64,000 nt of DNA from Bacillota bacterium (GCA_012798755.1 JAAZMP010000098.1:89016-153015); one strand, 5' to 3'. Counted from the first letter of the stretch, positions 38,440 through 55,306 are shown. Program-made: numbers and translations. Notes: generated by a model not told the origin, from the sequence alone.

Positions 38440-38498
38440 AACAAACCCTAGGAAAATGCATAGAGCAAACCCCAGGTATAAAGAAAATAAAACATATT

Positions 38499-38678: not shown

Positions 38679-38790
38679 CAAAAACAAAACACCTCCCGGA
38701 AGGCATAAACAACTTGCCCTATTAATATATTTTACCATATTAGCATTTTTAAAACACTTTTTGGCGGGGACGATTTTGCACTTAAAAGGT

Positions 38791-39309: not shown

Positions 39310-39445
39310 ATAGCTATGCCTCCAAAACTAAGCCTAATTATATATGAGTGCTCGCTTTTTTGTCAAGAATAACCGTTGATCACATAATTTGAAGACCTCA
39401 GACAGAGGTCTTCAAAAAATCCCGGTTTACGATGTCAGTCCTTTC

Positions 39446-39865: not shown

Positions 39866-39952
39866 TTAAACTTTTGATGATACCAAATATTATTATATCA
39901 CAGCCGGTAGCAGTTAAAAAATATTTCCCTTAGCATAGGTAACGCGGGATTC

Positions 39953-40414: not shown

Positions 40415-40442
40415 GCCGTCTATCAGGATAAATATAAAATAC

Positions 40443-40880: not shown

Positions 40881-41025
40881 TGTAATACCCCCAATTTTTC
40901 AAATTTCCAGGAATCGTCCCTTGTAATATTCTTTTTTTTGATTTTAAAATCCTTTCTATCTTGAAATATAAATTTTTAGCAGCCTTGCAAAGGTATTTTT
41001 TTGTTTCTTTCAATCATAGATTGCA

Positions 41026-41568
41026 TCAGTTGTCCACAATTTTTTGCAGGGAATTTTTATAAACAGCCAAATCCTTTGCTCCAAAAAGAACAAACCGGAC
41101 CAGTTTTGGTTTAGCATGTTCCTCCAAAAACTTGATTACGGTTCTTATGGATATTTCGGCTGCTTCTTCTAAAGGATAGCCAAAAATCCCCGTACTGATT
41201 GCCGGGAAGGAAATACTATTCAGATCATGTTCTACGGCCAGGGAAAGGCTGTTAAAATAACAGTTTTCCAGATCCTTAGCGTTCTGGGGTGTATTGTCGT
41301 ATACAGGGCCCACCGTATGAACCACGAAGCGAGCCGCTAAATTATAACCGGAAGTTATTTTAGCCTCCCCCGTTTCACATCCACCCAGCTTTTTGCATTC
41401 TTCCCAAAGCCCCGGCCCGGCGGCCTTATGTATTGCACCGGCCACCCCGCCACCAGGGGCAAGTTTTTTGTTGGCAGCATTGACAATGGCATCCGTTTGT
41501 TGCTTTGTTATATCGCCTTTAACTATTTCCAACGTGCAATCCCCTATTTTGTAACCTGTTTTCCCCAA
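41026..41568 (-). CDS. Macro domain protein (O-acetyl-ADP-ribose deacetylase / ADP-ribose binding, YmdB-like)
   Basis: 180 aa with VNAANKKLAPGGGVAGAIHKAAG and a C-terminal ISTGIFGYP motif. Confidence 0.85.
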   Translation of the reverse strand: MGKTGYKIGDCTLEIVKGDITKQQTDAIVNAANKKLAPGGGVAGAIHKAAGPGLWEECKKLGGCETGEAKITSGYNLAARFVVHTVGPVYDNTPQNAKDLENCYFNSLSLAVEHDLNSISFPAISTGIFGYPLEEAAEISIRTVIKFLEEHAKPKLVRFVLFGAKDLAVYKNSLQKIVDN

Positions 41569-41643
41569 ATTGGTTTTCTCCTTTCAAATTTTTTATTTTG
41601 CCCTACTATAGATATTTTATAATCAAACGTTGATTTTACCCAA

Positions 41644-43020
41644 CTAAATCACCAGATCTTCATTAAGATGACTGCAGTTGGTAGCTATAGCATTCATGGC
41701 GGCAGCGTTTATTGGATAGGCAATAGGTGATGGTGAAACCAAAGGATGTGTTGCTGCTTGGAAAGTGTTAAGTTCAGTTGCCGTAGTATCTTTTTGAATA
41801 GCTAGACTTAAAATGTTATTAATTTCAGAAACCGTATCTCCACCGGAAATTTGGGCTCCAAGGATAATACCGGAGCACTTGGAAAATATCAATTTTATGT
41901 TAATTTCCTGGGCACCGGGCAAAGTGCCAGGGTGACGATCCATAGTTTTAAATTCACCGACCATAAGGCTGAAACCCTCTTGTTTTGCCCTGGTTTCTGT
42001 AAGACCGGCCGCTGCGAATGTTTTGCCTGTAATTTTCGTAGAAAACGTGCTAATTGTACCTTTGTTGGCACGTATCAACCTTAACTGAAAGGCATTGCTG
42101 CCTGCTACCTTAGCTTCCATTGCTGCAGTTGAAGCTAAAAGCAACGGTACGTCTTTCCCAGTGAAAAAACATTTCTTTTCCGCGCAGTCACCTACGGCAA
42201 AAATGTCAGGATCGCTGGTTCTCATATATTGATCAACTATGATAGCACCCTTAGTATTTATTTTTATACCACATTCTTTTGCTAAGTCACCATTGGGATT
42301 CACTCCCAATCCCAAGATTACCATGTCTGCGGGAACAACCTGGCCATTTTCCACTTCAACGGCTCTCACAGATTTTTCGCCCGTTATTTTTTTTACCTTG
42401 GTGTTTGTCATCACACTGATTCCTTTAGCGGATAAAAGGGACTCAATATCATCCGTATATTTTTTGTCAAAGGCCTGCCACAAACAGGAATCAGCCATTT
42501 CGATTAACGCAACTTCCTTGTCCAATTCCCTGATTTGTTCCGCAAATTCTACCCCGATGAATCCCCCTCCGATTACAACAACATTCTGAGCAGATTCTAA
42601 TTTATTAAAGATTTTACCAAGATGCTCTTCATCTTTCATTACCGGAAACACGTTATCAAGATCATGGCCCGGAATGAATGTGGGGATTATAGGTAGTGAA
42701 CCGGTAGCAATAACCAATTTTTTATAACTAAAAACCCCACTTTTCTTTGTTGTTACCGTTTTCTGTTCCTTATTTATTTTTAGTGCACTGTCAATAACTA
42801 AGTTGATATTGGCATTATGCAACACGGCATCCGGAATAATATTCTTCTTCAAATCCCGCAAGGTGCCATAAATGTATGGAATACCGCATGGCACCATAAC
42901 CGTTTCGGTTTCGCGGATCAAGGTAATTTCAAGATCGTCCCCATAAGATTTCCGCGCCATCGTGGCAGCCAGGATCCCACCTGCACTTCCCCCAATTACC
43001 AGCAGATCCGTTTTTTTCAT
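41644..43020 (-). CDS. FAD-dependent pyridine nucleotide-disulfide oxidoreductase (CoA-disulfide reductase / NADH oxidase family)
   Basis: 458 aa with a GGSAGG FAD motif, a redox Cys in VPCGIPY, and a second Rossmann motif (VVVIGGGFIG). Confidence 0.75.
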   Translation of the reverse strand: MKKTDLLVIGGSAGGILAATMARKSYGDDLEITLIRETETVMVPCGIPYIYGTLRDLKKNIIPDAVLHNANINLVIDSALKINKEQKTVTTKKSGVFSYKKLVIATGSLPIIPTFIPGHDLDNVFPVMKDEEHLGKIFNKLESAQNVVVIGGGFIGVEFAEQIRELDKEVALIEMADSCLWQAFDKKYTDDIESLLSAKGISVMTNTKVKKITGEKSVRAVEVENGQVVPADMVILGLGVNPNGDLAKECGIKINTKGAIIVDQYMRTSDPDIFAVGDCAEKKCFFTGKDVPLLLASTAAMEAKVAGSNAFQLRLIRANKGTISTFSTKITGKTFAAAGLTETRAKQEGFSLMVGEFKTMDRHPGTLPGAQEINIKLIFSKCSGIILGAQISGGDTVSEINNILSLAIQKDTTATELNTFQAATHPLVSPSPIAYPINAAAMNAIATNCSHLNEDLVI

Positions 43021-43058
43021 TTTACTCCTCCTTATGTACTTTTGTAAAAAAATTTCCC

Positions 43059-43625
43059 TTATTTCAGTATTCCGTTCAAAATGATATCGGAATATAATCT
43101 TGCTATTTCCTCCGGCTTCAAACGTCCGTCAGGTTTATACCAATGATACAGCCAATTACACATACCGATTATGGCATAGACAGTGGGGAGGATATCGTTA
43201 TCCTTAAAAATGTTTTTCTTTATGCCTTCTTCTAAAACACTTGCGATTTTGTTTTCATATTTTCTTTCCCTGATATTAATAGCTTTAAGATTTTCAGGAA
43301 GCAAATTGGCCTTTTCGCTAAAGAATATGGCAATGTTAGGCATTTCATCAATAAAAGCCATTATTTGATTATAAATAATTTTATGGATCAGTTGTTCAAC
43401 GGGCATTTTTTGCCCCATTAAATTTTTCAAACGCAATTCGGCTGTTGTCATAGCGTGATCGAATATTTCATAAAGAATTTCCTCCTTGCTCGAAACATAA
43501 TAGTATAAAGCAGCCTTGGTAACATTTAAAGCATCTGCAATATCTTGAACGCTTGTCGCGGAAAAACTTTTTTCATTGAACAAACGGACAGCTGTTTGAA
43601 TTATCTTTTGTTTGGTTAAACTCAT
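43059..43625 (-). CDS. TetR/AcrR family transcriptional regulator
   Basis: N-terminal HTH FSATSVQDIADALNVTKAALYYYVSSKEEIL. An SD (GGAGGG) precedes the ATG. Confidence 0.9.
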   Translation of the reverse strand: MSLTKQKIIQTAVRLFNEKSFSATSVQDIADALNVTKAALYYYVSSKEEILYEIFDHAMTTAELRLKNLMGQKMPVEQLIHKIIYNQIMAFIDEMPNIAIFFSEKANLLPENLKAINIRERKYENKIASVLEEGIKKNIFKDNDILPTVYAIIGMCNWLYHWYKPDGRLKPEEIARLYSDIILNGILK

Positions 43626-43675
43626 CTTTACCCTCCAGTATCCCTGTACGGTTTTGTACCAGATATAGTTTTTCT

Positions 43676-43689
43676 ATAGTGTACACTAT
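43676..43689. promoter_or_regulatory. Perfect 14-bp palindrome ATAGTGTACACTAT, a candidate TetR operator
   Basis: An exact inverted repeat about 50 nt upstream of the tetR start codon, in the tetR 5' region. Confidence 0.55.
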
Positions 43690-43807
43690 TCCCCCTATTA
43701 CGACAACTATTCTAACACATAGAAATACCTTCCCTTCAAACAGAAAGGTTGTTGTAGTTTACACCTCCCGGTGTATTAACAATACCAAGGAATTTGAACA
43801 TAATAAT

Positions 43808-43846
43808 TTGTAGGCACTGGCGGTATTATCCTCAGTGCCTACAAAT
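43808..43846 (-). terminator. Long perfect hairpin (13-bp stem TTTGTAGGCACTG / CAGTGCCTACAAA with a 13-nt loop), probable terminator of the ligase-transporter operon
   Basis: Seen directly. On the minus strand it is followed by AUUAUUAUG. It lies between the small ORF and tetR. Confidence 0.5.
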
Positions 43847-43955
43847 CCTGTGAAACATTTTAGAAGCTTATGCCAAGGTTCTACATTGATGAAAATAATA
43901 AAAGTGCTATATTATAGAGTTGTTTTTGGCTGTCATGTAGTTAATCTATCAATTC

Positions 43956-44141
43956 TCAGTCGGTATATTGTTCATACTCAAGATCAAGATCGCTGGTTAG
44001 CTGCCACACAACGCTAAGTGCCCGACGTGCATTATAATAAATAGCAGGAAAGTCTTCCACTTCACATAATTCCTTTAGTAAATTATAGACATGCTGAACC
44101 TTTTCTTTTACCAATTCGGGATTTTTTTGATAGGACAACAC
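43956..44141 (-). CDS. Small acidic hypothetical protein (61 aa) immediately downstream of the CoA ligase
   Basis: The ORF starts 16 nt after the ligase stop and has no recognisable domain. The call rests on tight operon placement only. Confidence 0.3.
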   Translation of the reverse strand: MLSYQKNPELVKEKVQHVYNLLKELCEVEDFPAIYYNARRALSVVWQLTSDLDLEYEQYTD

Positions 44142-44157
44142 TTTAAAACCCCCTAAA

Positions 44158-45492
44158 TTATTTTTTAGTGCGCAAATCTCGGAACCTACGTGATTTTAGT
44201 TCATACTTTGGCAGAGCCCCTGGTTCCGCTATTTCAACATTGAAGGATAAACGATGCGCTTCATACAGTTTTTTTGATACTATTTTTTGCAAGTGTTGAT
44301 TTCTCCTGGGGAAATATTCCGGGAATAGTTCTATTTTTACTTTGACTTGATCAATGTCTTTTTCTTTGTAAATTATTATTTGAAATTCGTCAACTTCTTT
44401 AAATTCCCTGACTATGTCTTCAATGGCTGAGGGAAAAATATTTACTCCCCTCACATGTTTCATATCATCTGCTCTTCCTATTATCCCACCTTTGAAAAGA
44501 TCGAATGTTCTTCCACAGGAACAAAAACTGCTTTCAACACGTTCTACCAAATCGCCGGTTCGGTAGCGAATAAGTGGAAAGGCCCCCCTTCCAAAGGAAG
44601 TGATCACTAGTTCCCCCCGTTGACCGTAAGATAAATTATCTGCTGTCAAAGGATCGATAACTTCTTGTATATAATGGTCCTCTATAATATGGATCCCATC
44701 ACTTTGTTCGTTGCATTCGTAACAGGTTATGCCTCCTGTTTCAGACATTCCGGTAAAATCAGCTACTTTGGCGCCCCAAGTATCTTCCAACATTTTTTTC
44801 GTCCCAGGAATACTGCCCCCAGGTTCACCGGAATTAACTATATATTTTACTTTAGAGTCTTGGGCCAAATCAATACCCATTTCCCCGGCTACTTGAGCAA
44901 GCCTTATAGCATAGGTTGGTGTTGTGATAAGAGTCGTCACTTCCAACTCCATTATTTTATCGATACGTTCCTCACTGGACATTCCCCCTGTAGGTATAGT
45001 CAATGCACCAATTTTTTCACAAGCATAATGCGCAAGCCAAAAACCAATAAAAGTTCCATAACCTGAAGCTATCATGCATATATCTGTATCCCTGATGCCA
45101 AAAGCGTATAATCCATAACACCACATCTCCGACCCCCATTCCCAATCTTTCCTTCCATCCAAAATGCGTAAAGGGCCTTTTCCTGATGTTCCAGAGGTTT
45201 GGTGATACCTCACTGCTTGTTTATCATTAACGGTCATGAATTCCCCAAAAAGGGGATTTTCCAGCTGGGACTCACTTAACTCTTCCCTTGTCAAAAAGGG
45301 TATTTTTTTGATGTCTTCCAGGGATTTAATATCGCCTGGTTCAAAACCTACTGCATCAAGTTTCCCCTTCCATAAAGGGCTATTGTTATAAGCCCAGTCC
45401 ACAAGTACTTTTAACTTTTTTAGTTGGATTTTTCCTAAACCGTCCCTCGACATTAATTCCGTTTTTGGATTCCAATAATTTTGATTCTTCAT
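44158..45492 (-). CDS. Phenylacetate-CoA ligase (PaaK) family adenylate-forming enzyme (coenzyme F390 synthetase-like)
   Basis: 444 aa. An N-terminal PaaK-type domain (GKIQLKKLKVLVDWAYNNSPLWKGKL...IKKIPFLTREEL) is followed by an AMP-binding core (TSGTSGKGP) and a C-terminal domain. Confidence 0.8.
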   Translation of the reverse strand: MKNQNYWNPKTELMSRDGLGKIQLKKLKVLVDWAYNNSPLWKGKLDAVGFEPGDIKSLEDIKKIPFLTREELSESQLENPLFGEFMTVNDKQAVRYHQTSGTSGKGPLRILDGRKDWEWGSEMWCYGLYAFGIRDTDICMIASGYGTFIGFWLAHYACEKIGALTIPTGGMSSEERIDKIMELEVTTLITTPTYAIRLAQVAGEMGIDLAQDSKVKYIVNSGEPGGSIPGTKKMLEDTWGAKVADFTGMSETGGITCYECNEQSDGIHIIEDHYIQEVIDPLTADNLSYGQRGELVITSFGRGAFPLIRYRTGDLVERVESSFCSCGRTFDLFKGGIIGRADDMKHVRGVNIFPSAIEDIVREFKEVDEFQIIIYKEKDIDQVKVKIELFPEYFPRRNQHLQKIVSKKLYEAHRLSFNVEIAEPGALPKYELKSRRFRDLRTKK

Positions 45493-45539
45493 GATCTCCC
45501 TCCCCAGATCAGATGTTTTTTAACACTTCCGAAAACTAT

Positions 45540-47039
45540 TTAGCTTTCGTACACTTCATCAAACACCGTGAATATATTTTCAGTATTTAGCTTTGGTGCC
45601 GGTCTGGTAATCAGTGATACTGCTACCATTAGCACTACAGAAAGTATAAACCCGGGCGCAGCATAATGTGTGCCAAATGTAGTCCATTCCGGCAACACAT
45701 GAAAGGCCCACAGGGCAACACTGGTAACTCCTATAATCGAGGAAACAATAACCCCCCATTTGCTGGCCCGTTTCCAGTAAAGACAACCGAAATACGCGGG
45801 AAAAAGGGTGGCAAATCCCGCAAAAGAAAATTCCGCTATAGCCAGGATAGTAGCTGGTCTTACTAAAACCAACAAATATACTACTATTGCCACAATTAAA
45901 ATAAATATCCGGCTTAAATAGCTATCCTGTTTAGACGAAAGTTTTGTACCTCCTTTTTCTAAAATTGGTTTAACTATATCATCAGAAAAAATGGAAGATA
46001 CCACTAAAAGCATTCCATGCAAAGAAGAAAGAATAGCTGCCAAAATACCTGCCCCCAGGAGCCCGGTCATCCAAGGAGGCGCATATATTTCAGCTAACAT
46101 TGGCATTACATCGTCAACTGATGCACCAACTAAGCCAGGCACACCTACGCTTCCCCATACACCCAGGGTTATGGCCATAAACATAAATATCGTCATAAGG
46201 ATTGGGTATATAACCACATTCAGTTGGATAGCACGAGGAGATTCAGCAGACATGTTTCTTACTAGTATGTGGGGTACAACTCCATTGGAAATGCCTGTGC
46301 ACAACAAACTAAAGGGTATCCAATAGCCCAAGCGTTGCACTCCTTTGCCTCCCAAGGAAAGCATTTCATCCGGTAATTTTGCGATGATTTGTGTGCCTTT
46401 TCCCAACGCGTTGTATACTATGAACATCATGAAAACCAAGACACCGATCATCAAGATTCCCTGGAAAATATTTGTCCAGGCAGTTCCACGCATTCCTCCT
46501 GAATATGCTATATAGGTACTTGCCAATAAAATGACAAGGGCTCCCAACCAATAAGGAATTATTCCTTTAGTCACCGCTGATATGGCAATCCCCGAACCTA
46601 TTCCGCAGATTAAAATATAGGGTATGGTTAACAATATTTGCAAAGCTGCAACAACAAATCTTGGGGAATCATTTCCAAACCTGCTTTCACCCAAAAATTG
46701 TACTGGAGTTACAAAATTGTATCTCGCTGCAAGAAGCCATGCACGATATCCAATCAGGTAAAAACCAGCAGCAGATGCAAAATTGGCCATACCCTGTAAG
46801 TACCCTAGAGTTGAAAATCCTAATTCATACGCAGCGCCGGGTGCCCCCAGCATACCAAAAGCAGTAATTTGTGATCCGAAAATTGCAAAAACAAGTGCAA
46901 TAAAGCCTAAAGATCTGTTGGCAGTAAAAAGATCCGAAGGTGTAACCTTCATAACACGGGATGCCCAATAGCCAATCAGAATTGTGATCGCTAAATACAA
47001 AATAAGAATAGTGGTTGTAAGTAAGACGTTAACAGGCAT
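45540..47039 (-). CDS. Sodium:solute symporter (SSS family) permease
   Basis: 499 aa with about 13 TM helices and SSS family sequence features. It is paired with an upstream DUF4212 gene. Confidence 0.8.
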   Translation of the reverse strand: MPVNVLLTTTILILYLAITILIGYWASRVMKVTPSDLFTANRSLGFIALVFAIFGSQITAFGMLGAPGAAYELGFSTLGYLQGMANFASAAGFYLIGYRAWLLAARYNFVTPVQFLGESRFGNDSPRFVVAALQILLTIPYILICGIGSGIAISAVTKGIIPYWLGALVILLASTYIAYSGGMRGTAWTNIFQGILMIGVLVFMMFIVYNALGKGTQIIAKLPDEMLSLGGKGVQRLGYWIPFSLLCTGISNGVVPHILVRNMSAESPRAIQLNVVIYPILMTIFMFMAITLGVWGSVGVPGLVGASVDDVMPMLAEIYAPPWMTGLLGAGILAAILSSLHGMLLVVSSIFSDDIVKPILEKGGTKLSSKQDSYLSRIFILIVAIVVYLLVLVRPATILAIAEFSFAGFATLFPAYFGCLYWKRASKWGVIVSSIIGVTSVALWAFHVLPEWTTFGTHYAAPGFILSVVLMVAVSLITRPAPKLNTENIFTVFDEVYES

Positions 47040-47073
47040 TGGCTGTTCCTCCTGTTTTTCAATTCCTTTTCAT

Positions 47074-47340
47074 TTACTTTTTTAACGTTTTATATTCCTT
47101 CGGCAAAGGCCAACTAAATATTTGGATAATATAGTTAAAAGCCGAATAGCCTACAGATATTAACAAGGTACGATATAAATACTCCCCGGGTATCCAACCA
47201 AAATAAATGTTTTGTTTTCCCCAATTCCAAAAGTCAACATGCAAGATCAGCGCAAAAACAAACATTATCATAATAAAAATCAATGAACCACTGGTGGTTT
47301 TAAAATAATTTGTGAGACTTTTCACCTTGCCGCTCAACAT
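47074..47340 (-). CDS. DUF4212 small membrane protein (putative SSS transporter small subunit)
   Basis: 88 aa with 2 TM helices and the conserved FWNWG...YFGW pattern of DUF4212. It always accompanies an SSS permease. Confidence 0.7.
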   Translation of the reverse strand: MLSGKVKSLTNYFKTTSGSLIFIMIMFVFALILHVDFWNWGKQNIYFGWIPGEYLYRTLLISVGYSAFNYIIQIFSWPLPKEYKTLKK

Positions 47341-47572
47341 CAGTTCGCACCCCCTTTCTTTAGTGTTAAATTCTTTGCCGGTGTAAAAATTACGACAAGA
47401 CTTTTTGAAACTTTAGCTGTTTATGTAACATTTTTATAATTTAGATAAATATGGTTTGGAATATCTAGTGAAAATGAGCAAAAATTATAGTGTGAAGGAA
47501 ACTCGAAGTAAAATTGCAGCAATGTTTGTATGCAAATGCATTACCTATCAAAAGCGCTAATCGCCCGTTCTT

Positions 47573-47595
47573 TACTTACCGCCTAGTAAATTATA
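47573..47595 (-). promoter_or_regulatory. Putative promoter -10 (TATAAT, 47590..47595) plus TACT-N8-AGTA operator for the DUF4212-SSS-ligase operon
   Basis: Minus strand reads ttatcaagtgaacctatctaatTATAATtTACTaggcggtaAGTA. It has the same -10/operator geometry as the other two island promoters. Confidence 0.45.
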
Positions 47596-47654
47596 AATTA
47601 GATAGGTTCACTTGATAATACATTCACAAGGCGGACATATTTATAATAGTTACC

Positions 47655-49214
47655 CTATTTTCGTTTCCACAGTTCAAAGGCGCCTTTCGGACTTTTGAAG
47701 TGGAAACTTGAAACTTTGGGCTGCAGGCTCAACTTATCTATAAGTTCCAGTATTGGCATATCACGTGTGGAGAATTTCATAAATTTGCTGCCGCGCTCCT
47801 CAATGGCTTTGTACATGGTATCTATTTCGTCTTGACCCTTCATAAGATAGCGTAATATGAACTCTTCATCGGAAAGATGAACGGCATCAAGTTGCTTTCT
47901 TACCTCTTTAACAGTTAAGTACTGTGTCACCTTTTTATGATGTTCCCATTCTTTTTGCAGCTCCTTTGCCCTAGGCATGCTCAAAAATTTGTCCTTTAAG
48001 TTTGGTTCCATTTCCAAATATCCGGAATCCTCTGAAAAACAACCTATAGCAACTTTAAGCATTTCATCAACAACCGCCTTATAACGCTCACCCGTAGCTA
48101 CATTAAGTGCGGCTTGGGTGCAAACAAATTGCGAATAAGGAGTAATCATATGCGGATGGCCGGTTTCTTCGCATATTTTTATTACCTCTTCTGCAACTTC
48201 GTCTATCCTGCCTGTAAGATTTAATTCCTTTAGCTGGTGCACTGTATTAGATATAACGCCACCGGGGATTTTGTGTTTGTAGAGATACAAATTATAGCGC
48301 GTGGGCCCGAAATAAGTCGGCATAGGATAGTCCCCCACTGCCCTTACAGCATCTTTTGGGCCCACCTGTTTCGCCATAGCATATATACACTCAGAAACTC
48401 TTTGGATCCGTTCCAAGTCAAGATTTATTTCCAGGCCAAGGTGTTTACAATTATCCGCGACGTTAAAAACACTTGGCTGCGCCGTCCCCTCAGCCATAGG
48501 AGGGGTTGCAACATGGAAGATCCGGCATCCCATTTTCATCGCTTCCACATAAACAACATCGGCCATGCCTGTGGTACAGTGACTATGAAGTTCAATAGGT
48601 AAACCCTTTGAATGTTTTTGAACAATCGGCAACACTTTTCTAATTGAGTCCACGTCCAGCAATCCCCCGGCATCCTTTATATACATAGAAGTGGGTTCGT
48701 AAGCGGCCATAAGTTTTGTTTTGTCTTCAAAATAGCCCTCGGCCTGGTGTCTCGGGGATATGTAATAACAAACAGCAAAATTGATGCCTAGACCCAATTT
48801 TTTAATCAAGGGGATAAACCATTCGTAACGTTCTGTACCATAGATGTTGCCCATGACCTGGACACGTTGCAGTGCTCCATAATTTACAAGCAGCGTTAAA
48901 AACAATTCTATTATTGAACGGGGAGTGTCCCACATATCCCAGGGATTAATGCCCGGTTCGTACATTATACCTTTTTTAGTTTTAGTTTGACCGAACATTC
49001 TTACCATTTCCCAAATATCTTCCCTTAAGTCACGGGTATACTTTTTAAAATTTGGAGTAACGTAGGGAGCATCAATGTAAGCGTAACCAGCTTTATCAAT
49101 ATCTTCGAGTATTTCTTTCATCATACCGGCCGGCATGCCTGATGCCCAGTTGCTCTGGGCTCCATCACGCATTGTAGTATCAACAAAATTGACAATCTTT
49201 TTCATAATTTTCAC
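47655..49214 (-). CDS. PycB/OadA-like carboxyltransferase (HMGL-like DRE-TIM barrel; transcarboxylase 5S-type) without a biotinyl domain
   Basis: N-terminal VDTTMRDGAQS and metal-site LHSHCTTGMA motifs match the pyruvate carboxylase subunit B / oxaloacetate decarboxylase alpha carboxyltransferase domain. The 519-aa protein ends ...FELWKRK with no AMKM biotin attachment motif. Confidence 0.65.
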   Translation of the reverse strand: MKIMKKIVNFVDTTMRDGAQSNWASGMPAGMMKEILEDIDKAGYAYIDAPYVTPNFKKYTRDLREDIWEMVRMFGQTKTKKGIMYEPGINPWDMWDTPRSIIELFLTLLVNYGALQRVQVMGNIYGTERYEWFIPLIKKLGLGINFAVCYYISPRHQAEGYFEDKTKLMAAYEPTSMYIKDAGGLLDVDSIRKVLPIVQKHSKGLPIELHSHCTTGMADVVYVEAMKMGCRIFHVATPPMAEGTAQPSVFNVADNCKHLGLEINLDLERIQRVSECIYAMAKQVGPKDAVRAVGDYPMPTYFGPTRYNLYLYKHKIPGGVISNTVHQLKELNLTGRIDEVAEEVIKICEETGHPHMITPYSQFVCTQAALNVATGERYKAVVDEMLKVAIGCFSEDSGYLEMEPNLKDKFLSMPRAKELQKEWEHHKKVTQYLTVKEVRKQLDAVHLSDEEFILRYLMKGQDEIDTMYKAIEERGSKFMKFSTRDMPILELIDKLSLQPKVSSFHFKSPKGAFELWKRK

Positions 49215-49310
49215 CTCAGCATTTTTTATAAGTTTTACTGAATTTATTTATGCTCATCATTAACTATTAAGAATATACTTATAACATCTAAAGGATAGCC
49301 CTTACTAACT

Positions 49311-49348
49311 GTTTAGTAGATTATAAAACAAACTTACCCCTTTGTCAA
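49311..49348 (-). promoter_or_regulatory. Consensus sigma-A promoter (GTATTGACAAA-17-TATAAT) with an overlapping TACTAAACAGTTAGTA inverted repeat, upstream of the carboxyltransferase gene
   Basis: -35 at 49343..49348 and -10 at 49320..49325. The inverted repeat TACT-N8-AGTA at 49303..49318 starts 1 nt after the -10. Confidence 0.6.
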
Positions 49349-49426
49349 TACATTCTCAAATATTTATATATTATACCTATGCAAACTATTATGTGTAGAG
49401 CAACTAATCTGCAGATAAATTTTAAT

Positions 49427-49451
49427 CAAAAAAAACACCCCGTGAGGGGTG
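49427..49451 (-). terminator. Rho-independent terminator of the molybdoenzyme operon
   Basis: Minus strand reads CACCCCUCACGGGGUG followed by UUUUUUUUGAUU, about 80 nt after the large-subunit stop. Confidence 0.8.
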
Positions 49452-49527
49452 ACCAAATTAAAATATAAGAGTTTTGCTTTTACATACACCTTGCTAAAGG
49501 AACTTTTAACTACTTAAAATAATGGTG

Positions 49528-51891
49528 CTATTCTTTTTTATCCATAAAGGCTTGGAGCACTCTTTCAGGGGTTAAGGGAAGTTCTTTTATCCTTAGACCG
49601 GTTGCATCATAGACAGCATTTGCTATTGCTGCTATTGCCGCCGAGCGGGAAGATTCACCTACTTCCTTGGCCCCAAATGGTCCTTTTGGATCATTGGTAA
49701 TTATATGGTTAACATTTATTTCCTCGGGTATATCCAACGTTCCGGGGATCTTATAATCAGTCAATGTAGGATTGACTATTCGTCCATTTTCAATAATAAT
49801 TTGCTCAAATAAAGCATCCCCAAGCCCTTGGACGGCCTGGCTTTCTACTTGGCCCTCTACAGCCAGCGGGTTTATAGGGTACCCACAGTCCTCCGCACTG
49901 GTAAGTTTGAGCACTTTAACTTTTCCTGTTTCTTTGTCCACCTCAACTTCTGCAATGATGATGGAAAAAGTGTAGGCATTGGTCCAGCGCCCTGTTCCTT
50001 TAGAAAGACTTGGGTAAAACTCAACTTCCGGCACAGGTTTGCAGAACCCTTTTCCCAAGATAGGATCGCCGTTGCGCGCCTGAATGCTGTTTATCATCAA
50101 TTCAGCAAAGGTCATCGCCTTTTCCGGATCACTTTTGGCATAAACTTTGCGATCCTTAAGCACCAGATCATCTTCCTTAACTTCCAGCCACCCTGATGCA
50201 AAATCCAGAATTTGTTCCCTTACGTTAACAGCAGCTTTCCTGACAGCCTCCCCGGTAACGAAAATACCGCCGCTGAGCCAGTTTCCATGATCAATGGGGC
50301 ACAACTCTGAATCCGCAGAAACCAAAATTATGTCGTCTAAACCCACACCTAGTTCTTCAGCAGCTATTTGTGACATAGCAGTATCCGATCCCTGCCCAAA
50401 TTCAATAGCACCGCAAAACAAGGTAAAAGTTCCATCAGGATTAAGTTTCATTGTTGCTGCGGCTCCAAAGGGATAGTACTGGGCACCATTAAACATAGCA
50501 GCAACCCCAATACCGATGCCGCGATTTTTGTCCCTGCCTTTGCCTCGTTTTTCCTTCCAACCACTTACCTCCATAGCCTTTTGGATACCTTCCGCAAGCC
50601 CGCAACTATGCAAAGTATCCCCGTTAGGTAGAACATCGCCTTTTTTTCTAAAATTTTTGAGTCTAAGTTCTGCCGGATCCAGGCCCAAATCTTCAGCAAT
50701 TTGATCTAGTTGAGATTCGACAGAAAAAGACATCTGGGGTGAACCGTGGCCCCTTCTGGGCATACAGATCGACTTATTGGTATAAACCCCGATCCCTTCG
50801 TGCTTGGCATTTGGTATGTTATATATCGGGCGTCGGAAACCATGTGTAAGAAAAAGAACAACGGGAGAACTACCCCGGTAAGCCCCGGGATCATCAATAG
50901 CTTTAATTTCCTGGGCCATAATAGTGCCGTCTTTTTTGACGCCTGTTTTTACATTTATTATAAAACGGTGGCTTAACCGGCACGCTATAAAAACTTCTTC
51001 ACGCGTCAATGATATTTTTACTGGTCGCAGTGTCATCCTGGAAAGAAAAGCCGCCAAAAACTCATAGGAAAATGGATCGATTTTACCGCCAAAAGCGCCA
51101 CCTACATAGGCTTTACGAACTCTGACCCTGCTTATAGGAACATCGAGAGCCCGGGCCAACCAGTAGCGTTTTACTTCATAGCCCATATGTGTAAGCCAAA
51201 CATCAAATTTTTGGAAGGACGGATCCCAGTTTGCCAGCGCCACATGGGGTTCCATGGCCATATGCGATGTAGATGGAATATAAAATTTATCTTCCCGGAT
51301 ATACTCTGATTCTTTAAAACCTTTTTCAATATCGCCGTGCCCTTGTTGGCTTATGGCACAAATATTGTTTTCAGCTTTATAGGATCTGGCTTTTCTGGCC
51401 ACCCCCCAATCTTCCCAAGCGCAAGGCCTGTCAGGGACAATTTCATCGTGTATTTCTGGTGCACCATCCTGCATCGCTTCTTCCGGATCAAAAACAGCTG
51501 GCAGCTCCTCATATTCTACCTTAATCAAAGATAAAGCCTCATCAGCTATATCTTTGCTGGTTGCAGCTACAGCAGCTACTTCTTCACCAATATAGCGTAC
51601 TTTGTCTGTTGCCAAAACTAACTGATCAGCCGGATATCTTGGAGTGTCCACAAATCCATATCTTACCGGCCCGATATCTTTGGCTGTAATTACTGCCTTG
51701 ACCCCGGGCAATTTTTTAGCTTCGCTGGTATCAATATTTATAATTTTGGCATGGGGGTAAGGACTGCGGAGAATTCTACCCCATAGCATATTAGGAAGTT
51801 CCATATCATAAGTAAATTTTGCTCGTCCCGTAGCCTTAGCTATTCCATCCACCCTGGTTAAAGACTTGCCAACTACAGAATGTTTTTTCAT
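49528..51891 (-). CDS. Xanthine dehydrogenase / aldehyde oxidoreductase-family molybdopterin-binding large subunit (CoxL-like)
   Basis: 787 aa with the a/b hammerhead N-terminus (GKSLTRVDGIAKATGRAKFTYD) and Mo-cofactor domains. Confidence 0.85.
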   Translation of the reverse strand: MKKHSVVGKSLTRVDGIAKATGRAKFTYDMELPNMLWGRILRSPYPHAKIINIDTSEAKKLPGVKAVITAKDIGPVRYGFVDTPRYPADQLVLATDKVRYIGEEVAAVAATSKDIADEALSLIKVEYEELPAVFDPEEAMQDGAPEIHDEIVPDRPCAWEDWGVARKARSYKAENNICAISQQGHGDIEKGFKESEYIREDKFYIPSTSHMAMEPHVALANWDPSFQKFDVWLTHMGYEVKRYWLARALDVPISRVRVRKAYVGGAFGGKIDPFSYEFLAAFLSRMTLRPVKISLTREEVFIACRLSHRFIINVKTGVKKDGTIMAQEIKAIDDPGAYRGSSPVVLFLTHGFRRPIYNIPNAKHEGIGVYTNKSICMPRRGHGSPQMSFSVESQLDQIAEDLGLDPAELRLKNFRKKGDVLPNGDTLHSCGLAEGIQKAMEVSGWKEKRGKGRDKNRGIGIGVAAMFNGAQYYPFGAAATMKLNPDGTFTLFCGAIEFGQGSDTAMSQIAAEELGVGLDDIILVSADSELCPIDHGNWLSGGIFVTGEAVRKAAVNVREQILDFASGWLEVKEDDLVLKDRKVYAKSDPEKAMTFAELMINSIQARNGDPILGKGFCKPVPEVEFYPSLSKGTGRWTNAYTFSIIIAEVEVDKETGKVKVLKLTSAEDCGYPINPLAVEGQVESQAVQGLGDALFEQIIIENGRIVNPTLTDYKIPGTLDIPEEINVNHIITNDPKGPFGAKEVGESSRSAAIAAIANAVYDATGLRIKELPLTPERVLQAFMDKKE

Positions 51892-51895
51892 TGTG

Positions 51896-52414
51896 TTACT
51901 TGCCTCCTTTTGTTGCTGTTTTATTTTCCTGCATCATTTCCTGGCTGGCTGCAAGTACCGCATCTAAAATTCTAACATAACCGGTACACCGGCAAAGCAC
52001 TCCCTCCATTGCTTCCTTTGTTTCCATTCTTGTTGGTTTGGGGTTTTTTTCCAGAAAGGATTTAGCTGCCAAGATCATCCCCGGGGTGCAAAAACCGCAC
52101 TGAATGGCCCCATGATCTACAAAAGCCTTTTGAAGCGGGTGTAATTTTTCCCCTTCGGCAACACCTTCGATAGTTAATATATCTTTGCCATTTGCATCTA
52201 CAGCTAACACCAAACAGGAGTTGACCGGTTTGCCATCAAGAATTACTAAGCAGTTTCCACATTCTCCGGTACCGCAGGATTCTTTAGCGCCTGTCAGCCC
52301 GGCCTCTTCTCTGATAACTTCCACCAAGGTTCTCCAGGGTTCTACATTGAATTCATAATGTTCTCCATTAATTGTTAGTTCAATTCGTTTTTTCATGAAA
52401 TTTATACCCCCCAT
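51896..52414 (-). CDS. Mo-hydroxylase [2Fe-2S] small subunit (CoxS-like)
   Basis: A plant-type cluster (CGTGECGNC) and a second cluster (CGFCTPG...CRCTGY). The start is probably the internal MKKRIELTING at about 52396. Confidence 0.9.
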   Translation of the reverse strand: MGGINFMKKRIELTINGEHYEFNVEPWRTLVEVIREEAGLTGAKESCGTGECGNCLVILDGKPVNSCLVLAVDANGKDILTIEGVAEGEKLHPLQKAFVDHGAIQCGFCTPGMILAAKSFLEKNPKPTRMETKEAMEGVLCRCTGYVRILDAVLAASQEMMQENKTATKGGK

Positions 52415-52499
52415 ATAATGTTTTTAAAACCAGTTAAAACTTTCGGCACCTTCCCCTTGAGAAAGATGGAACAAAAGATTTTTTGGTTAAAAGGTTTTG

Positions 52500-53381
52500 T
52501 TAGATTGTTGCTTGTTTTATAGCCCGTATAGTTAAAACCCGTACCAATTCCCGTTTATAGTCGGGGCGGGTACGAGGCTTGGCTTCTTTGGAAGCAGCCA
52601 GTGCTGCTTTTTCTATGAGTTCCTGATCAAGAGTCTTTCCTTTGATTGTATTTTCCGCTTTGTGGGCACGCATAGGGGTAGGAGCTGTGGCCCCCAAAAC
52701 AATTTTGGCATCAACAACTTTAGCACGTTTTGCATCCATTGTAATAACAGTGCCAACACTGACCACAGCTACATCGGTAACCGACCTTTCGGGGTTCTTT
52801 AAATACACCCCAGCACTGTTGTCAGGTAAAACGGGCACCTGTATTTCTGTAACCATTTCACCATTTTGAAGAGCATTGACTTTCGAATCCACAAAAAAAT
52901 CCTCAACAAGCATAGTCCTGCTTCCTTCGACCCCTTGAATTTTTACCTTTGCCCCCAAGCAAATTAATAGCGGTGCTGAATCGGCTGCAGGCAAAGCATT
53001 GCAAAGATTGCCGGCCATGGTTGCCACATTGCGAGTTGTAGGCAATCCGGATTTTTCGGCAGCCTCAGCAACCAAAGGGAATTTTTCCTTAACTATTTTT
53101 GCGTCTTTTATTTCATTAAGAGTAGCCAGTGCACCTATCTGCAAAAGGCCTTCACCATTGTAACGGATATAATTAAGATCGGGAATCGTTTTGATGTTCA
53201 CTAAATATTTGGGACTTATTTCCCGCTTTTTCATGGAAACCAAAAGATCTGTTCCCCCAGCCAGGACCATAGCATCACCTTTGTACTTATGAAGAAGCGA
53301 ACAAGCTTCTTCAATTGTCTTTGGTTCAAAATATTCGAACTTTGGCAAATTCATTAAGTACCTCAAATCCGATGAATTCAT
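52500..53381 (-). CDS. Mo-hydroxylase FAD-binding medium subunit (CoxM-like)
   Basis: 293 aa with an FAD-binding PCMH-type domain (AGGTDLL...). The gene order medium-small-large is the coxMSL type. Confidence 0.85.
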   Translation of the reverse strand: MNSSDLRYLMNLPKFEYFEPKTIEEACSLLHKYKGDAMVLAGGTDLLVSMKKREISPKYLVNIKTIPDLNYIRYNGEGLLQIGALATLNEIKDAKIVKEKFPLVAEAAEKSGLPTTRNVATMAGNLCNALPAADSAPLLICLGAKVKIQGVEGSRTMLVEDFFVDSKVNALQNGEMVTEIQVPVLPDNSAGVYLKNPERSVTDVAVVSVGTVITMDAKRAKVVDAKIVLGATAPTPMRAHKAENTIKGKTLDQELIEKAALAASKEAKPRTRPDYKRELVRVLTIRAIKQATI

Positions 53382-53429
53382 TTCTCACAGCTCCTTTTCA
53401 AGTAATTTTTTAGAAACAATCTACTGTCC

Positions 53430-53468
53430 GTTTAGTAAAATCATATTAGAAATAATCCTTTTTGTCAA
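53430..53468 (-). promoter_or_regulatory. Consensus sigma-A promoter (GTATTGACAAA-17-TATGAT) with an overlapping TACTAAACGGACAGTA inverted repeat, upstream of the Mo-hydroxylase operon
   Basis: -35 at 53463..53468 and -10 at 53440..53445. TACT-N8-AGTA begins 2 nt after the -10. Confidence 0.6.
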
Positions 53469-53507
53469 TACCTTTAAAAGATTTTCTGAATTCTTCCTGG
53501 CAAAATT

Positions 53508-53535
53508 GGAAAAAATGCGCGCTAACGCGCGCTTA
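53508..53535 (-). terminator. Rho-independent terminator downstream of icd
   Basis: A GCGCGC/GCGCGC stem with a uaac loop, followed on the minus strand by AUUUUUUCC. Confidence 0.75.
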
Positions 53536-53671
53536 TGAAACTTGGGTTCGGGAAAAACGCACCATTTTCTCTTGTCATAACAGACAAGCCGAAAACGAAC
53601 TAGCTGTCAAATTTCTTAAAGATTCCCGCCAAGCATTATGATGAAGCTTTTCTATATGTTTATACCATATC

Positions 53672-54667
53672 TTACAATTTTTCTATAATCGCTTGTGTCA
53701 TCTGGGAAGTTGTTGCATCTCCACCCAGATCATAGGTAACAACTTTCCCCTCTGCTATTACGGCAGCCAGCGCTGTTTGTATCTTTTGTGCAATTTCTTC
53801 CTCTCCTATGTGCTGCAGCAGCATAACTGCCGAAAGGATAGTAGCCGTAGGGTTTACCCTATCTTGTCCGGCATATTTCGGTGCACTGCCGTGCACGGGT
53901 TCAAAAATAGCTATTTCTTCCCCAAAATTGGCACCGGGAGCAACCCCCAGGCCTCCAACCAGACCGGCACAAATATCGGAAATAATATCACCATAAAGAT
54001 TCAGCGTGACCATGACATCATAAAGTTCCGGCTTTACAACCAACTGCATGGACATATTATCAACAATGCGGTCTTCAAATTCTATATCAGGGTAATCTTT
54101 GGAAATTTCCCTGGCTACGGACAGGAAAAGGCCATCGGTATACTTCATAATGTTAGCCTTATGTACAGCAGTTACTTTCTTACGCTCATATTTACGCGCA
54201 TATTCGAAAGCAAACCGAACGATGCGCTCCGATCCTTTACGCGTAATAATTTTTATACTTTCCGCAGCATCATCACCAACCATATGCTCTATGCCGGCAT
54301 ATAGATCTTCTGTATTTTCTCTTACGATGACCAGATCGATGTTTTCATAACGGCTGTTAATACCTTTATAAGATCTGGTTGGCCTTAAATTAGCATATAG
54401 ATCAAGTTCCCTGCGCAGGGCAACATTTACACTGCGAAATCCTTCGCCTATGGGGGTGGTAAGCGGGCCTTTAAGAGCTACCTTGTTTTGCCTGATGGAT
54501 TCCAGGACATTTTCCGGCAGTACGCTGCCAACCCTTTCATAGGCTTTCAGACCTGCTTCTCTGATTTCCCAATTAATAGGCACCGCAGCGGCCTTAAAGA
54601 TCTCCTTTACAGAAGAAGTAAGTTCTGGTCCCGTTCCATCTCCGGGTATTAAAGTAACTTGGTACAT
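53672..54667 (-). CDS. icd: NAD(P)-dependent isocitrate / isopropylmalate dehydrogenase family enzyme (short, roughly 330-aa type)
   Basis: [16 protein letters not shown]-terminus and the NLYGDIISD motif. The tracked ORF starts 19 codons too early. Confidence 0.8.
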
Positions 54668-54748
54668 ATATATATCCTCCTGTCTCTTGGTTTGAACAAT
54701 GACTGGTTTTAGGGGCATTAACATTCGTTCCAGCTTATACCGTAAGTG

Positions 54749-55306
54749 TTATTTTGTTTGATAAATTTGTTGATAGCGCTTATAAGTCTTATCTACCTTT
54801 AGAACAAAAAACCGAGTTTCCGGGAAAGGGATATTGCCCAGTTCGTTTTTGGTACCATCCCACAGACCACTTTTTAGCCATCTGCTTACGTAGGTTCTCC
54901 CACCATTATAAGCTGCCAGGGCAGCATATTTATTACCATCGAATTGGCAAAAAAGATCTTGCAAATACCATGTCCCAATCGTGATATTTACCAGGGGATC
55001 GTATAACTTTTCTTCAGCAAAAGCTTCCATTCCGATTTGTTCGGCTACCCATAAACCCGTTTCGGGCATTATTTGCATCAATCCCAGGGCTCCTTTGGAG
55101 GATTTGGCTTTTTTGTCAAAACCACTTTCCACCCGCACAACAGCTGCAATAAAAAGGGGTTCAAGTCCATTTTTATGAGCTTCTTGAGTAATAATTTCGC
55201 TATAATGAAAAGGATATACCAAACGAGCAACAAAATTAGCCCGGGTGATAAACAGATACAAAAACAATAAAAATATAGCCAGGTAAACAATTTTAGATGG
55301 CTTCAA
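54749..55306 (-). CDS. Lytic transglycosylase (SLT domain) with an N-terminal signal/anchor
   Basis: Catalytic ES motif (VRVESGF) and the KGALGLMQIMPETG motif. Confidence 0.85.
   Translation of the reverse strand: MKPSKIVYLAIFLLFLYLFITRANFVARLVYPFHYSEIITQEAHKNGLEPLFIAAVVRVESGFDKKAKSSKGALGLMQIMPETGLWVAEQIGMEAFAEEKLYDPLVNITIGTWYLQDLFCQFDGNKYAALAAYNGGRTYVSRWLKSGLWDGTKNELGNIPFPETRFFVLKVDKTYKRYQQIYQTK

Follow-up and report, generated by a model that had tools for sequence, protein, structure and literature searches.

The 64,000-nucleotide stretch of Bacillota bacterium DNA analyzed here (GCA_012798755.1, JAAZMP010000098.1:89016-153015; hereafter the window) contains a 10-kb block, positions 43059-53381, in which every gene is on the minus strand. 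The block encodes a three-subunit molybdoenzyme of the xanthine dehydrogenase (XDH) family, a stand-alone carboxyltransferase (CT), a sodium:solute symporter (SSS) family transporter, a PaaK-like CoA ligase and a TetR-family regulator (Table 1). The source is a metagenome-assembled genome (MAG) named 'Firmicutes bacterium', with the locus-tag prefix GX996. Rather than one operon, the block consists of three transcription units, each of which opens with a sigma-70-like promoter and a palindrome. The reading that we favor, with somewhat better than even confidence, is that the three units form a TetR-controlled catabolic regulon for acid uptake, CoA ligation and a molybdoenzyme-catalyzed conversion, with the CT as an auxiliary enzyme, in an anaerobic Firmicute of biogas reactors.

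Table 1. Genes and putative transcription signals of the block, numbered from the first nucleotide of the window
Feature	Position	Strand	Remarks
Terminator-like hairpin 3′ of icd	53517-53532	minus	GCGCGCGTTAGCGCGC then T-run; separates the block from the upstream housekeeping genes
Putative promoter P_xdh, 5′ of FAD subunit	53440-53468 (cassette 53421-53468)	minus	TTGACA-17-TATGAT, 11/12
Putative operator palindrome of P_xdh	53422-53437	minus	TACTAAACGGACAGTA
FAD-binding medium subunit, XDH-family enzyme	52500-53381	minus	293 amino acids (aa); Pfam FAD_binding_5, CO_deh_flav_C
[2Fe-2S] small subunit	51896-52396	minus	166 aa as called, open reading frame (ORF) reaches 52414; Pfam Fer2, Fer2_2; gene call as in locus L168
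Molybdopterin-binding large subunit, HcrA-like	49528-51891	minus	787 aa; Pfam Ald_Xan_dh_C, MoCoBD_1, MoCoBD_2
Terminator-like hairpin 3′ of large subunit	49436-49451	minus	CACCCCTCACGGGGTG then T8
Putative promoter P_ct, 5′ of CT	49320-49348 (cassette 49302-49348)	minus	TTGACA-17-TATAAT, 12/12
Putative operator palindrome of P_ct	49303-49318	minus	TACTAAACAGTTAGTA
Stand-alone PycB/OadA-like CT	47655-49205	minus	516 aa from true ATG start; Pfam HMGL-like, PYC_OADA
Putative promoter P_sss, 5′ of 88-aa ORF and SSS genes	47590-47618 (cassette 47572-47618)	minus	TTATCA-17-TATAAT
Putative operator palindrome of P_sss	47573-47588	minus	TACTAGGCGGTAAGTA
Small membrane ORF, 5′ of symporter	47074-47340	minus	88 aa; gene called in independent assemblies too
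SSS family transporter	45540-47039	minus	499 aa; Pfam SSF, 136 bits
PaaK-like acyl/aryl-CoA ligase	44158-45492	minus	444 aa; Pfam AMP-binding_C_2
Conserved ORF directly 3′ of ligase	43956-44141	minus	61 aa; homologous 63-aa ORF at locus L084, 8230-8421
TetR-family regulator	43059-43625	minus	Pfam TetR_N, TetR_C_24; presumed repressor of the three operators

Three transcription units with a common promoter-operator cassette

P_ct and P_xdh are the two top promoter matches and the hairpins 3′ of icd and of the large subunit are the two best terminator-like matches. The prediction made in an earlier note on this DNA, that the block has its own promoters and terminators, is thus supported. Each palindrome is positioned 1-3 nucleotides (nt) downstream of its -10 box, and the three 60-nt promoter regions can be aligned without gaps in the same register. 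The pattern TACTANNCNGNNAGTA (TACTA-N2-C-N-G-N2-AGTA) has exactly three matches in the 64 kb and none in 100 shuffles; as it was built from the three window sites, the independent test is its occurrence in other loci. Copies of the window contig aside, exact matches were present in only two of the 173 loci that had been fetched by then, L084 and L120. In L084, the pattern follows TTGACA-17-TATAAT 5′ of a ligase-XDH operon, and a copy with two mismatches follows an identical promoter, in the same position, 5′ of dctP. The L120 match follows a TATAAT box 5′ of the FAD subunit gene. A TetR orthologue is present in both of these operator-bearing loci, adjoining the module. As the cassette is shared by the three units, and is found elsewhere in loci with a TetR orthologue, the three units are best regarded as one TetR-type regulon, with TetR presumably binding at all three operators.

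P_sss starts 37 nt past the CT stop codon and, as there is no terminator between the CT gene and the symporter unit, read-through into this unit from P_ct may also occur. Transcription from P_sss leaves an untranslated leader of ~230 nt (47341-47572) ahead of the 88-aa ORF, and a second promoter-like site, 47484-47512, is located within this leader. No Rfam match, to a riboswitch or any other RNA, was found in the long intergenic regions at E ≤ 0.1.

A molybdoenzyme related to 4-hydroxybenzoyl-CoA reductase

The FAD, double [2Fe-2S] and MoCoBD Pfam domains all score above their cut-offs, which places the enzyme in the XDH/molybdenum hydroxylase superfamily. The best NCBIfam model for the large subunit is TIGR03194, the alpha subunit of 4-hydroxybenzoyl-CoA reductase (4-HBCR), with 649.1 bits against a cut-off of 994.55, followed by the XdhA model (556 bits, cut-off 780); CO dehydrogenase (TIGR02416) gave 321 bits against 991. 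The closest solved structure is also 4-HBCR alpha (1RM6_A), with 442 bits over the full length, and the next, all at 294 bits, are 6-hydroxypseudooxynicotine dehydrogenase, quinoline oxidoreductase and CO dehydrogenase. The sequence GGAFGGK is present, and the Glu of GAKEVGE, invariant in an alignment of 20 relatives, is at the position expected for the catalytic Glu. Relative to HcrA, there is an extra insertion of ~18 residues. A regular-expression search of the large subunit gave no match to AYxCSFR, the motif of form I CoxL; no well-characterized clade claims this subunit and, as described below, the CT carries no biotinyl domain. The earlier note had named the presence of each of these features as evidence against its interpretation.

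The FAD subunit matches TIGR03195 (4-HBCR beta) with only 114 bits against a cut-off of 404.55, and in two separate pieces. It has only three Cys residues, its best PDB matches are of the CutM/CoxM type, and it lacks the ~45-aa Cys-rich [4Fe-4S] loop seen in HcrB (1RM6_B) and in loci L128, L145 and L124. Among 29 loci whose large subunits share 55% or more identity with the window protein, the loop was detected in none; the loop region was read directly for 17 of them, and in the remaining 12 the subunits are mostly short (288-313 aa). At 54% identity or below, 33 of 36 loci have it. The loop-bearing sister groups, L128, L145 and L124, are themselves below the HcrA/HcrB equivalog cut-offs, with TIGR03194 scores of 651-681 bits.

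A genuine 4-hydroxybenzoate module, in which 4-hydroxybenzoate would be converted to 4-hydroxybenzoyl-CoA and then by a 4-HBCR orthologue to benzoyl-CoA, with the CT irrelevant, would account for 4-HBCR alpha being both the best NCBIfam and the best PDB match, and for the annotation of several homologues as 4-HBCR by the Joint Genome Institute (JGI). A minimal transporter, ligase and reductase set feeding a central pathway would also fit the absence of further pathway genes. The alpha and beta scores are, however, both below their cut-offs, the FAD subunit is without the [4Fe-4S] loop that defines the inverted electron flow of 4-HBCR, the large subunit has the insertion relative to HcrA, and the ligase is of the PaaK type and not of the benzoate-CoA ligase type. 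Identity as 4-HBCR was rejected on the two scores and the missing loop, and we consider the 4-hydroxybenzoate module as a whole distinctly improbable. Judged by sequence, the window enzyme belongs instead to an uncharacterized sister clade of 4-HBCR without the extra [4Fe-4S] cluster. As 4-HBCR alpha is by far the closest structure, an aromatic-type CoA thioester is the best reading of its substrate. The first proposal for this locus, 4-HBCR-type chemistry on a CoA ester, holds in part, in that HcrA is the nearest solved relative but the enzyme itself is no 4-HBCR.

Two characterized systems are instructive. HcrABC from Thauera aromatica (1RM6) is also a three-subunit XDH-family enzyme, and in both systems the genetic pairing with a CoA ligase points to a CoA thioester as the substrate. 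The window system is unlike HcrABC in gene order, medium-small-large (M-S-L) rather than S-L-M, in having a PaaK-type ligase, in lacking the [4Fe-4S] loop and in its sub-cut-off scores, and these differences are common to the whole clade at ≥ 55% identity. UcdCFO, the urolithin C dehydroxylase of Enterocloster, catalyzes a reductive aryl dehydroxylation that is stimulated by NAD(P)H (PMC11760930). It resembles the window enzyme in architecture, as an XDH-family M/S/L enzyme of anaerobic Firmicutes without the HcrB [4Fe-4S] loop; its substrate is, however, a free polyphenol and not a CoA ester, and there is no linked ligase. As UcdCFO works reductively without the loop, the redox direction is not readable from the missing cluster, and the window enzyme could work as a reductase.

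A conserved transporter, ligase and molybdoenzyme module

Related molybdoenzymes were collected from 84 loci, of which a metagenome scan supplied 80 and contig look-ups the other 4; many are short contigs. A PaaK-like ligase is encoded beside the large-subunit relative in 30 of these loci and a class-I AMP-binding ligase in 14 more, in agreement with the pairing of molybdoenzyme and CoA ligase as a functional unit that had been proposed for the window. In L084, where the large subunit is 79% identical to that of the window, the order is TetR, TRAP DctPQM, ligase, 63-aa ORF, FAD, FeS and Mo subunits; in L086 and L087, from Desulfobacteraceae (63%), it is DctPQM, response regulator, ligase, FAD, FeS and Mo subunits. 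TRAP DctPQM genes take the equivalent position of the SSS symporter in L084, L086, L100 and L109. The conserved core thus consists of genes for a carboxylate transporter and a PaaK-like ligase together with a molybdoenzyme set in M-S-L order. Given this linkage to ligase and transporter genes, the molybdoenzyme very probably acts on a CoA thioester made from an imported carboxylate.

The ligase is 74% identical to the ligase beside the orthologous molybdoenzyme in L084. With 273 bits against TIGR02155 (PaaK; cut-off 646.3) and 279 against NF041878 (cut-off 700), it is by these scores PaaK-like only and not a PaaK equivalog. It shares with PaaK the short adenylate-forming architecture and AMP-binding_C_2, and its best PDB match is the Bacteroides thetaiotaomicron PaaK (239 bits), but it is nearly as similar to 2-hydroxyisobutyryl-CoA synthetase (211 bits). 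The symporter is below every NCBIfam equivalog cut-off, including that of TIGR03648 (VC_2705; Na_symport_lg, symporter large subunit), for which it scores 80.5 bits against 320.75. The 88-aa ORF that precedes it has one strong and one weaker hydrophobic segment. Its assignment as a DUF4212 subunit, made in the earlier note, was rejected as there is no Pfam match at E ≤ 10 and no NCBIfam match, and as the symporter is so far below the VC_2705 cut-off. The 61-aa ORF 3′ of the ligase is ~60% identical, by eye, to the 63-aa ORF of L084; both have sub-threshold matches to DUF6052 (E 0.03 and 0.06) and to no other family, and the 61-aa ORF looks compatible with a small helical protein.

In L085 (3876-12015), the gene for an orthologous large subunit with 75% identity precedes genes for HdrD-like, HdrA-like, FlpD/MvhD, NuoE-like and NuoF-like proteins. 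The likeness of these to electron-bifurcating complexes is a hint that the molybdoenzyme clade may be coupled to low-potential electron transfer. Literature searches for a module of PaaK, XDH and TRAP components returned nothing relevant. The Desulfatiglans anilini proteome with aniline and 4-aminobenzoate was kept as a lead only; the induced proteins include TRAP binding proteins, CODH-like subunits and a ligase of the PaaK type. An analogy with the indoleacetate (iaa) system was dropped, as the source paper gave no molybdoenzyme information.

A carboxyltransferase of the ketone carboxylase type

HMGL-like and PYC_OADA are the only Pfam domains of the CT, and there is no Biotin_lipoyl domain. 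The sequence EAMKM (aa 221-225, 48531-48545) has the letters of the canonical biotinylation motif but was rejected as a biotinylation site; it is part of the TIM barrel, it corresponds to EAMKLG in the family consensus, and the Biotin_lipoyl domain is missing. The best score against a PycB/OadA/5S-type model is 208.5 bits (PRK09282, cut-off 402), with all equivalogs far below. PycB, 5S and OadA are matched at ~110-116 bits (~1e-31) over residues 1-392 only, and there are weak NCBIfam matches to HMG-CoA lyase and 4-hydroxy-2-oxovalerate aldolase. Much better, and full-length, matches are to CTs encoded on plasmids (L171, L172 and L173), with 26-33% identity over 95-99% of the length and E-values of 1e-53 to 1e-80 (tblastn). 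The plasmid cluster of Rhodococcus oxybenzonivorans has genes for a dikinase, biotin carboxyl carrier protein (BCCP), biotin carboxylase (BC), CT, thiolase and phosphatase, and that of Sphingobium yanoikuyae for a thioesterase, beta-keto-acid cleavage enzyme (BKACE), Tm-1-like protein, BCCP, BC, CT and HAD phosphatase.

Closer homologues form a large family of 490-520 aa proteins, mostly labeled 'hypothetical' or 'oxaloacetate decarboxylase alpha', from Bacillaceae, Oscillospiraceae, Desulfosporosinus, Desulfosarcina, Pseudonocardia, Betaproteobacteria and Rhodospirillales. The window CT is 41-57% identical to the Bacillaceae, Oscillospiraceae, Pseudonocardia and Betaproteobacteria members. 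Of 78 family loci, 57 have a BCCP (~180 aa) and/or a BC (~450 aa) gene beside the CT gene, most often arranged as CT-BCCP-BC. Another 13 are clear orphans, with 3 kb or more of sequence to either side, and many of these come from genomes that gave several CT loci. The Bacillaceae loci surveyed also have genes for BKACE, CoA-transferase A/B plus thiolase, and thioesterase, and some encode a PaaK-like ligase as well; each of these offers a way to process a beta-keto acid. Literature searches for a BKACE-linked biotin carboxylase returned nothing relevant.

The window CT and PycB, OadA and 5S have in common the TIM-barrel fold family, the metal ligands (Asp, Lys, His-x-His) and the catalytic Thr of T-P-x-S-Q, and the conserved sequences in the CT are DTTMRDGAQS, IKDAGG, HSHCTTG and ITPYSQ. 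The Arg of LLRGxN is, in contrast, absent; the position reads YEPGIN in the window CT and the Arg is missing across the whole CT family. This residue, R621 of Rhizobium etli pyruvate carboxylase, binds the pyruvate carboxylate, and its absence speaks against a 2-oxo acid of the classical kind as the substrate. Also particular to the family is a distinct C-terminal tail of ~120 aa. The last residues of the tail (aa 484-516, 47655-47756; L-I/L-D-x-L-S-x-Q-P-x-I-x-x-V-x...) resemble the N-terminus of partner BCCPs (LIDKLEESSFNYLKLEN..KIVIGK; L001, L017 and others), a pairing that hhalign makes only weakly (E 0.017, probability 2.7%), and this likeness may reflect an assembly element.

Within the wider family, two three-component biotin carboxylases with a PycB-like CT have been shown experimentally to act on aryl methyl ketones, HpeCBA from Rhodococcus rhodochrous GD02 (PMC9618137) and AcvCDE from Sphingobium SYK-6 (bioRxiv 10.1101/2022.04.28.489975). 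They convert (phosphorylated) 4-hydroxyacetophenone or acetovanillone to the beta-keto acid (PMC9618137; bioRxiv 10.1101/2022.04.28.489975). The composition of the plasmid clusters points to L171 and L172 being orthologous to HpeB and AcvE. The window CT is, like those of Hpe, Acv and the XccABC carboxylase proposed for Aromatoleum aromaticum EbN1, a stand-alone PycB-like protein of ~490-520 aa that is separate from BCCP and BC; unlike Hpe and Acv, which have kinase and phosphatase genes (HpeHI/HpeD, AcvAB/AcvF), BCCP and BC in cis, the window has none of these. The window CT is assigned to the CT subunits of the three-component, biotin-dependent, ketone-type carboxylase family, in a separate, uncharacterized subfamily. 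The earlier note had described an orphan CT of the 5S type that could act on a 2-oxo acid. That it has no biotin domain and no partner biotin subunit nearby was correct, but it is not of the 5S type and its family usually has the CT-BCCP-BC arrangement; a 2-oxo-acid substrate is opposed both by the missing Arg and by the ketone substrates of HpeCBA and AcvCDE.

Candidate partners of the carboxyltransferase

No BCCP or BC gene was found by tblastn across the 64-kb window, including the 315-nt gap 3′ of the CT gene. The same MAG does, however, contain a second CT (NMB40704.1, GX996_02060), 84% identical to that of the window (NMB41614.1), which is encoded between genes for a PaaK-like ligase and a BCCP. 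L175, an orthologue of this paralogous locus with 89% identity, continues with a BC gene. A candidate for the biotin-carrier partner, for which the earlier note had proposed a search of the genome, is thus the BCCP beside the CT paralogue, with the BC at the orthologous locus. The homology between the window and paralogue loci is limited to the CT gene, and the two CTs have a dN/dS of 0.05 with a dS of ~1.5, which marks them as an old duplication under purifying selection. Orphan CT subunits that share BC-BCCP are known in actinobacterial acyl-CoA carboxylases. Given the operator that it shares with the other two units, the window CT looks like a substrate-specific subunit that has been recruited into the regulon and relies on BCCP and BC in trans.

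The decarboxylase option raised in the earlier note, taken here to mean that the CT functions alone and biotin-free, either decarboxylating an oxaloacetate-like or beta-keto-acid intermediate or acting on it as a C-C lyase, draws on the absence of BCCP and BC from the 64 kb, on the HMGL-like barrel, which is common to C-C lyases, and on the weak lyase and aldolase matches. Isolated CT domains of pyruvate carboxylase also slowly decarboxylate oxaloacetate. This option is nevertheless very unlikely. No family member, orphan or not, departs from the biotin-transfer residues, among them the T-P-x-S-Q Thr; orphans recur in genomes with multiple CTs, some of which have a complete set elsewhere (for example, the Betaproteobacteria MAG of L026, L031 and L038); a CT is encoded beside a BCCP in the same MAG and with a BC at L175; and there is the weak likeness between the C-terminal tail and the N-terminus of BCCP.

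In three of the 13 orphan CT loci (L037, L049 and L052, all Betaproteobacteria MAGs), a non-orthologous XDH-family trio, with a large subunit 28-33% identical to that of the window, is encoded within 10 kb. Only one of the 57 partnered CT loci (L007) has XDH-family matches, which are partial, to FAD and FeS subunits only. This proximity could be due to chance in gene-dense catabolic regions or could be a recurrent association. The closest named homologue of the window CT, 'PycB4' (67% identical; L004/L006), is encoded in a CT-BCCP-BC-AMP-ligase operon on the Desulfosarcina variabilis chromosome (8.61-8.64 Mb). The ~9 kb upstream contain four transposase genes (IS66, IS1595, IS110 and rve), which suggests that the PycB4 carboxylase operon is mobile in this species.

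Genomic setting of the block

The block is flanked on one side by a housekeeping run of icd, SLT, coaE, fpg and polA and on the other by genes for a CoADR-like pyridine-nucleotide disulfide oxidoreductase, Macro, USP, 4HBT thioesterase, YceD, plsX and fabH, as expected from its description in the earlier note as lying between icd/polA and fab/ribosomal-protein neighborhoods. The genes listed there are all present at the positions given, the DUF4212 identity excepted; the TetR gene was within the limits set but went unnamed, and the 61-aa ORF was not listed. The description of the block as an island does not hold in the mobile-element sense; there is no tRNA gene, the GC content does not deviate, and the flanks have no direct or inverted repeats of note. 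Assemblies made independently from several biogas and digester samples have an identical gene order, and the block is therefore not a chimera or assembly artefact.

The disulfide oxidoreductase (41644-43020, minus strand; 458 aa, Pyr_redox_2 and Pyr_redox_dim), which resembles CoA-disulfide reductase/NADH oxidase, begins 38 nt past the TetR gene, with which it may be co-transcribed. In L088 and L089, TetR is not followed by this gene. The 4HBT-fold thioesterase (39953-40342, minus strand) is encoded 2.7 kb 3′ of the block, past Macro and USP, is without an upstream operator, and could be a CoA-ester housekeeping or proofreading enzyme.

A proposed pathway and its alternatives

In the regulon that we propose, TetR would occupy the 16-bp palindrome that overlaps the start region of each of the three near-identical sigma-70-type promoters, and would be released once a ligand, probably an acyl-CoA, appears. 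By homology, the SSS symporter and its small membrane partner would bring in a carboxylic acid and the PaaK-like ligase would convert this acid to the CoA thioester. The heterotrimeric molybdoenzyme, with FAD, two [2Fe-2S] clusters and Mo-pterin, would then, as homology and gene linkage indicate, hydroxylate or reductively dehydroxylate the aromatic-type acyl-CoA. The CT, partnerless in cis, would use the BCCP and BC of the paralogous ligase-CT-BCCP-BC operon and, as its place under the regulon operator suggests, would feed the same pathway. In the most economical branch, a methyl-ketone analogue would be carboxylated to a beta-keto acid, converted to the beta-ketoacyl-CoA and cleaved to the same aroyl-CoA, the substrate of the molybdoenzyme. 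Such a branch would mirror the sequence of Xcc carboxylase, CoA ligase and Hcr proposed for 4-hydroxyacetophenone in Aromatoleum aromaticum EbN1, where XccABC, a CoA ligase and Hcr are components of one proposed pathway. We infer the CoA-ester substrate, the supply of BCCP and BC in trans and the link from the CT product to the molybdoenzyme.

Several observations weigh against this proposal. A neutral ketone needs no ion-coupled carboxylate importer. PaaK-like ligases also activate aliphatic acids, such as 2-hydroxyisobutyrate, so that the substrate may not be aromatic. A pooled Pfam scan of 107 neighboring proteins revealed no consistent downstream pathway near members of the molybdoenzyme clade; the proteins are heterogeneous, with ETF in 5, BcrAD/HGD-D in 2, ABC transporters and response regulators. 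There is no aryl-ketone kinase, phosphatase or thiolase gene in the window, and no dikinase, Tm-1-like or HAD gene among those annotated from 36392 to 55306. The assignment of the CT paralogue to the same genome is as secure as the metagenomic binning on which it rests. The region upstream of TetR itself has a different palindrome (43675-43690), which is ~50 nt upstream of the TetR start, unique in the window and unlike the regulon operator. This 16-bp sequence, AATAGTGTACACTATA, has one mismatched outer pair and a perfect 14-bp core, ATAGTGTACACTAT, and may be the site of another regulator or an autoregulatory site. A CT is encoded in none of the 84 molybdoenzyme loci, and molybdoenzymes orthologous to that of the window are never beside CT family members. 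In the absence of co-occurrence elsewhere, functional coupling of the CT to the molybdoenzyme is argued from the shared operator in this lineage.

The absence of the CT from all of these loci is also what would be expected if it were a hitch-hiking duplicate, with no role in the pathway, that landed between the molybdoenzyme and transporter-ligase operons. TetR orthologues in the closest relatives, L088 (86% identity) and L089 (64%), are encoded directly 3′ of the molybdoenzyme large subunit, so that the CT and the transporter-ligase unit together occupy a variable position, and the CT gene has its own promoter with a terminator ahead of it. A passenger gene would not, however, be expected to share its operator, set in identical register, with the other two promoters, to have remained under long-term purifying selection or to recur in this arrangement in several independent assemblies, and we regard hitch-hiking as unlikely.

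A heteroaromatic route of the Trudgill type was also considered, in which a 2-furoate-like acid would be activated, hydroxylated by the molybdoenzyme and ring-opened to a 2-oxo acid (or its CoA ester), which the CT would carboxylate as a 2-oxoglutarate carboxylase, with icd then catalyzing a reduction. With no reductase-type cluster, the ordinary hydroxylase direction is plausible, icd is directly upstream of the block, and 2-furoyl-CoA dehydrogenase is an XDH-family enzyme that acts on a CoA ester. The samples are from biogas fermenters, a lignocellulose-fed setting. The strong terminator, however, cuts off icd, which is part of the housekeeping run with SLT, coaE, fpg and polA; the CT family does not have the Arg that binds the carboxylate of 2-oxo acids, and its characterized relatives act on ketones; JGI assigns homologues of the molybdoenzyme to hcrA and not to hmfA; and the block encodes no lactonase or hydrolase. 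This route has, in our estimate, very little probability, and a TetR-controlled regulon for the uptake, CoA activation and molybdenum-dependent conversion of an acid, with the CT as auxiliary enzyme, is the reading that we retain.

Significance for anaerobic catabolism

What is new here is the cluster-less HcrA-like clade, the uncharacterized CT subfamily and, in this lineage, their coupling under one operator; both enzyme families have characterized relatives. In a bolder and tentative version, to which we give considerably less credence than to the regulon itself, the cluster-less clade would be a new class of aroyl-CoA (de)hydroxylases of strict anaerobes, possibly with a reductive reaction that has long lacked an assigned enzyme, such as 3-hydroxybenzoyl-CoA dehydroxylation or 4-aminobenzoyl-CoA deamination. 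In the Firmicute studied here, a TetR operator would wire this enzyme to a swappable ketone-carboxylase CT, one BC/BCCP pair would serve several CTs, each specific for a substrate and placed in a different regulon, and an aromatic acid and its methyl-ketone analogue would converge on one CoA ester.

The cluster-less 4-HBCR-like clade and the stand-alone CTs of three-component carboxylases are both widespread in anaerobes and essentially unstudied, the only characterized relatives of the CT family dating from 2022 and from lignin-ketone catabolism. The data suggest a modular build for the biotin carboxylases of Firmicutes, in which orphan CT paralogues draw on a single BC/BCCP pair. The regulon is compact, an operator and TetR with four catalytic and transport functions, and so offers a route to both inducer and substrate. 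Knowledge of the substrate would allow correction of the many genes in digester, sediment and groundwater metagenomes that are mislabeled as '4-hydroxybenzoyl-CoA reductase', 'pyruvate carboxylase subunit B' or 'oxaloacetate decarboxylase alpha'.

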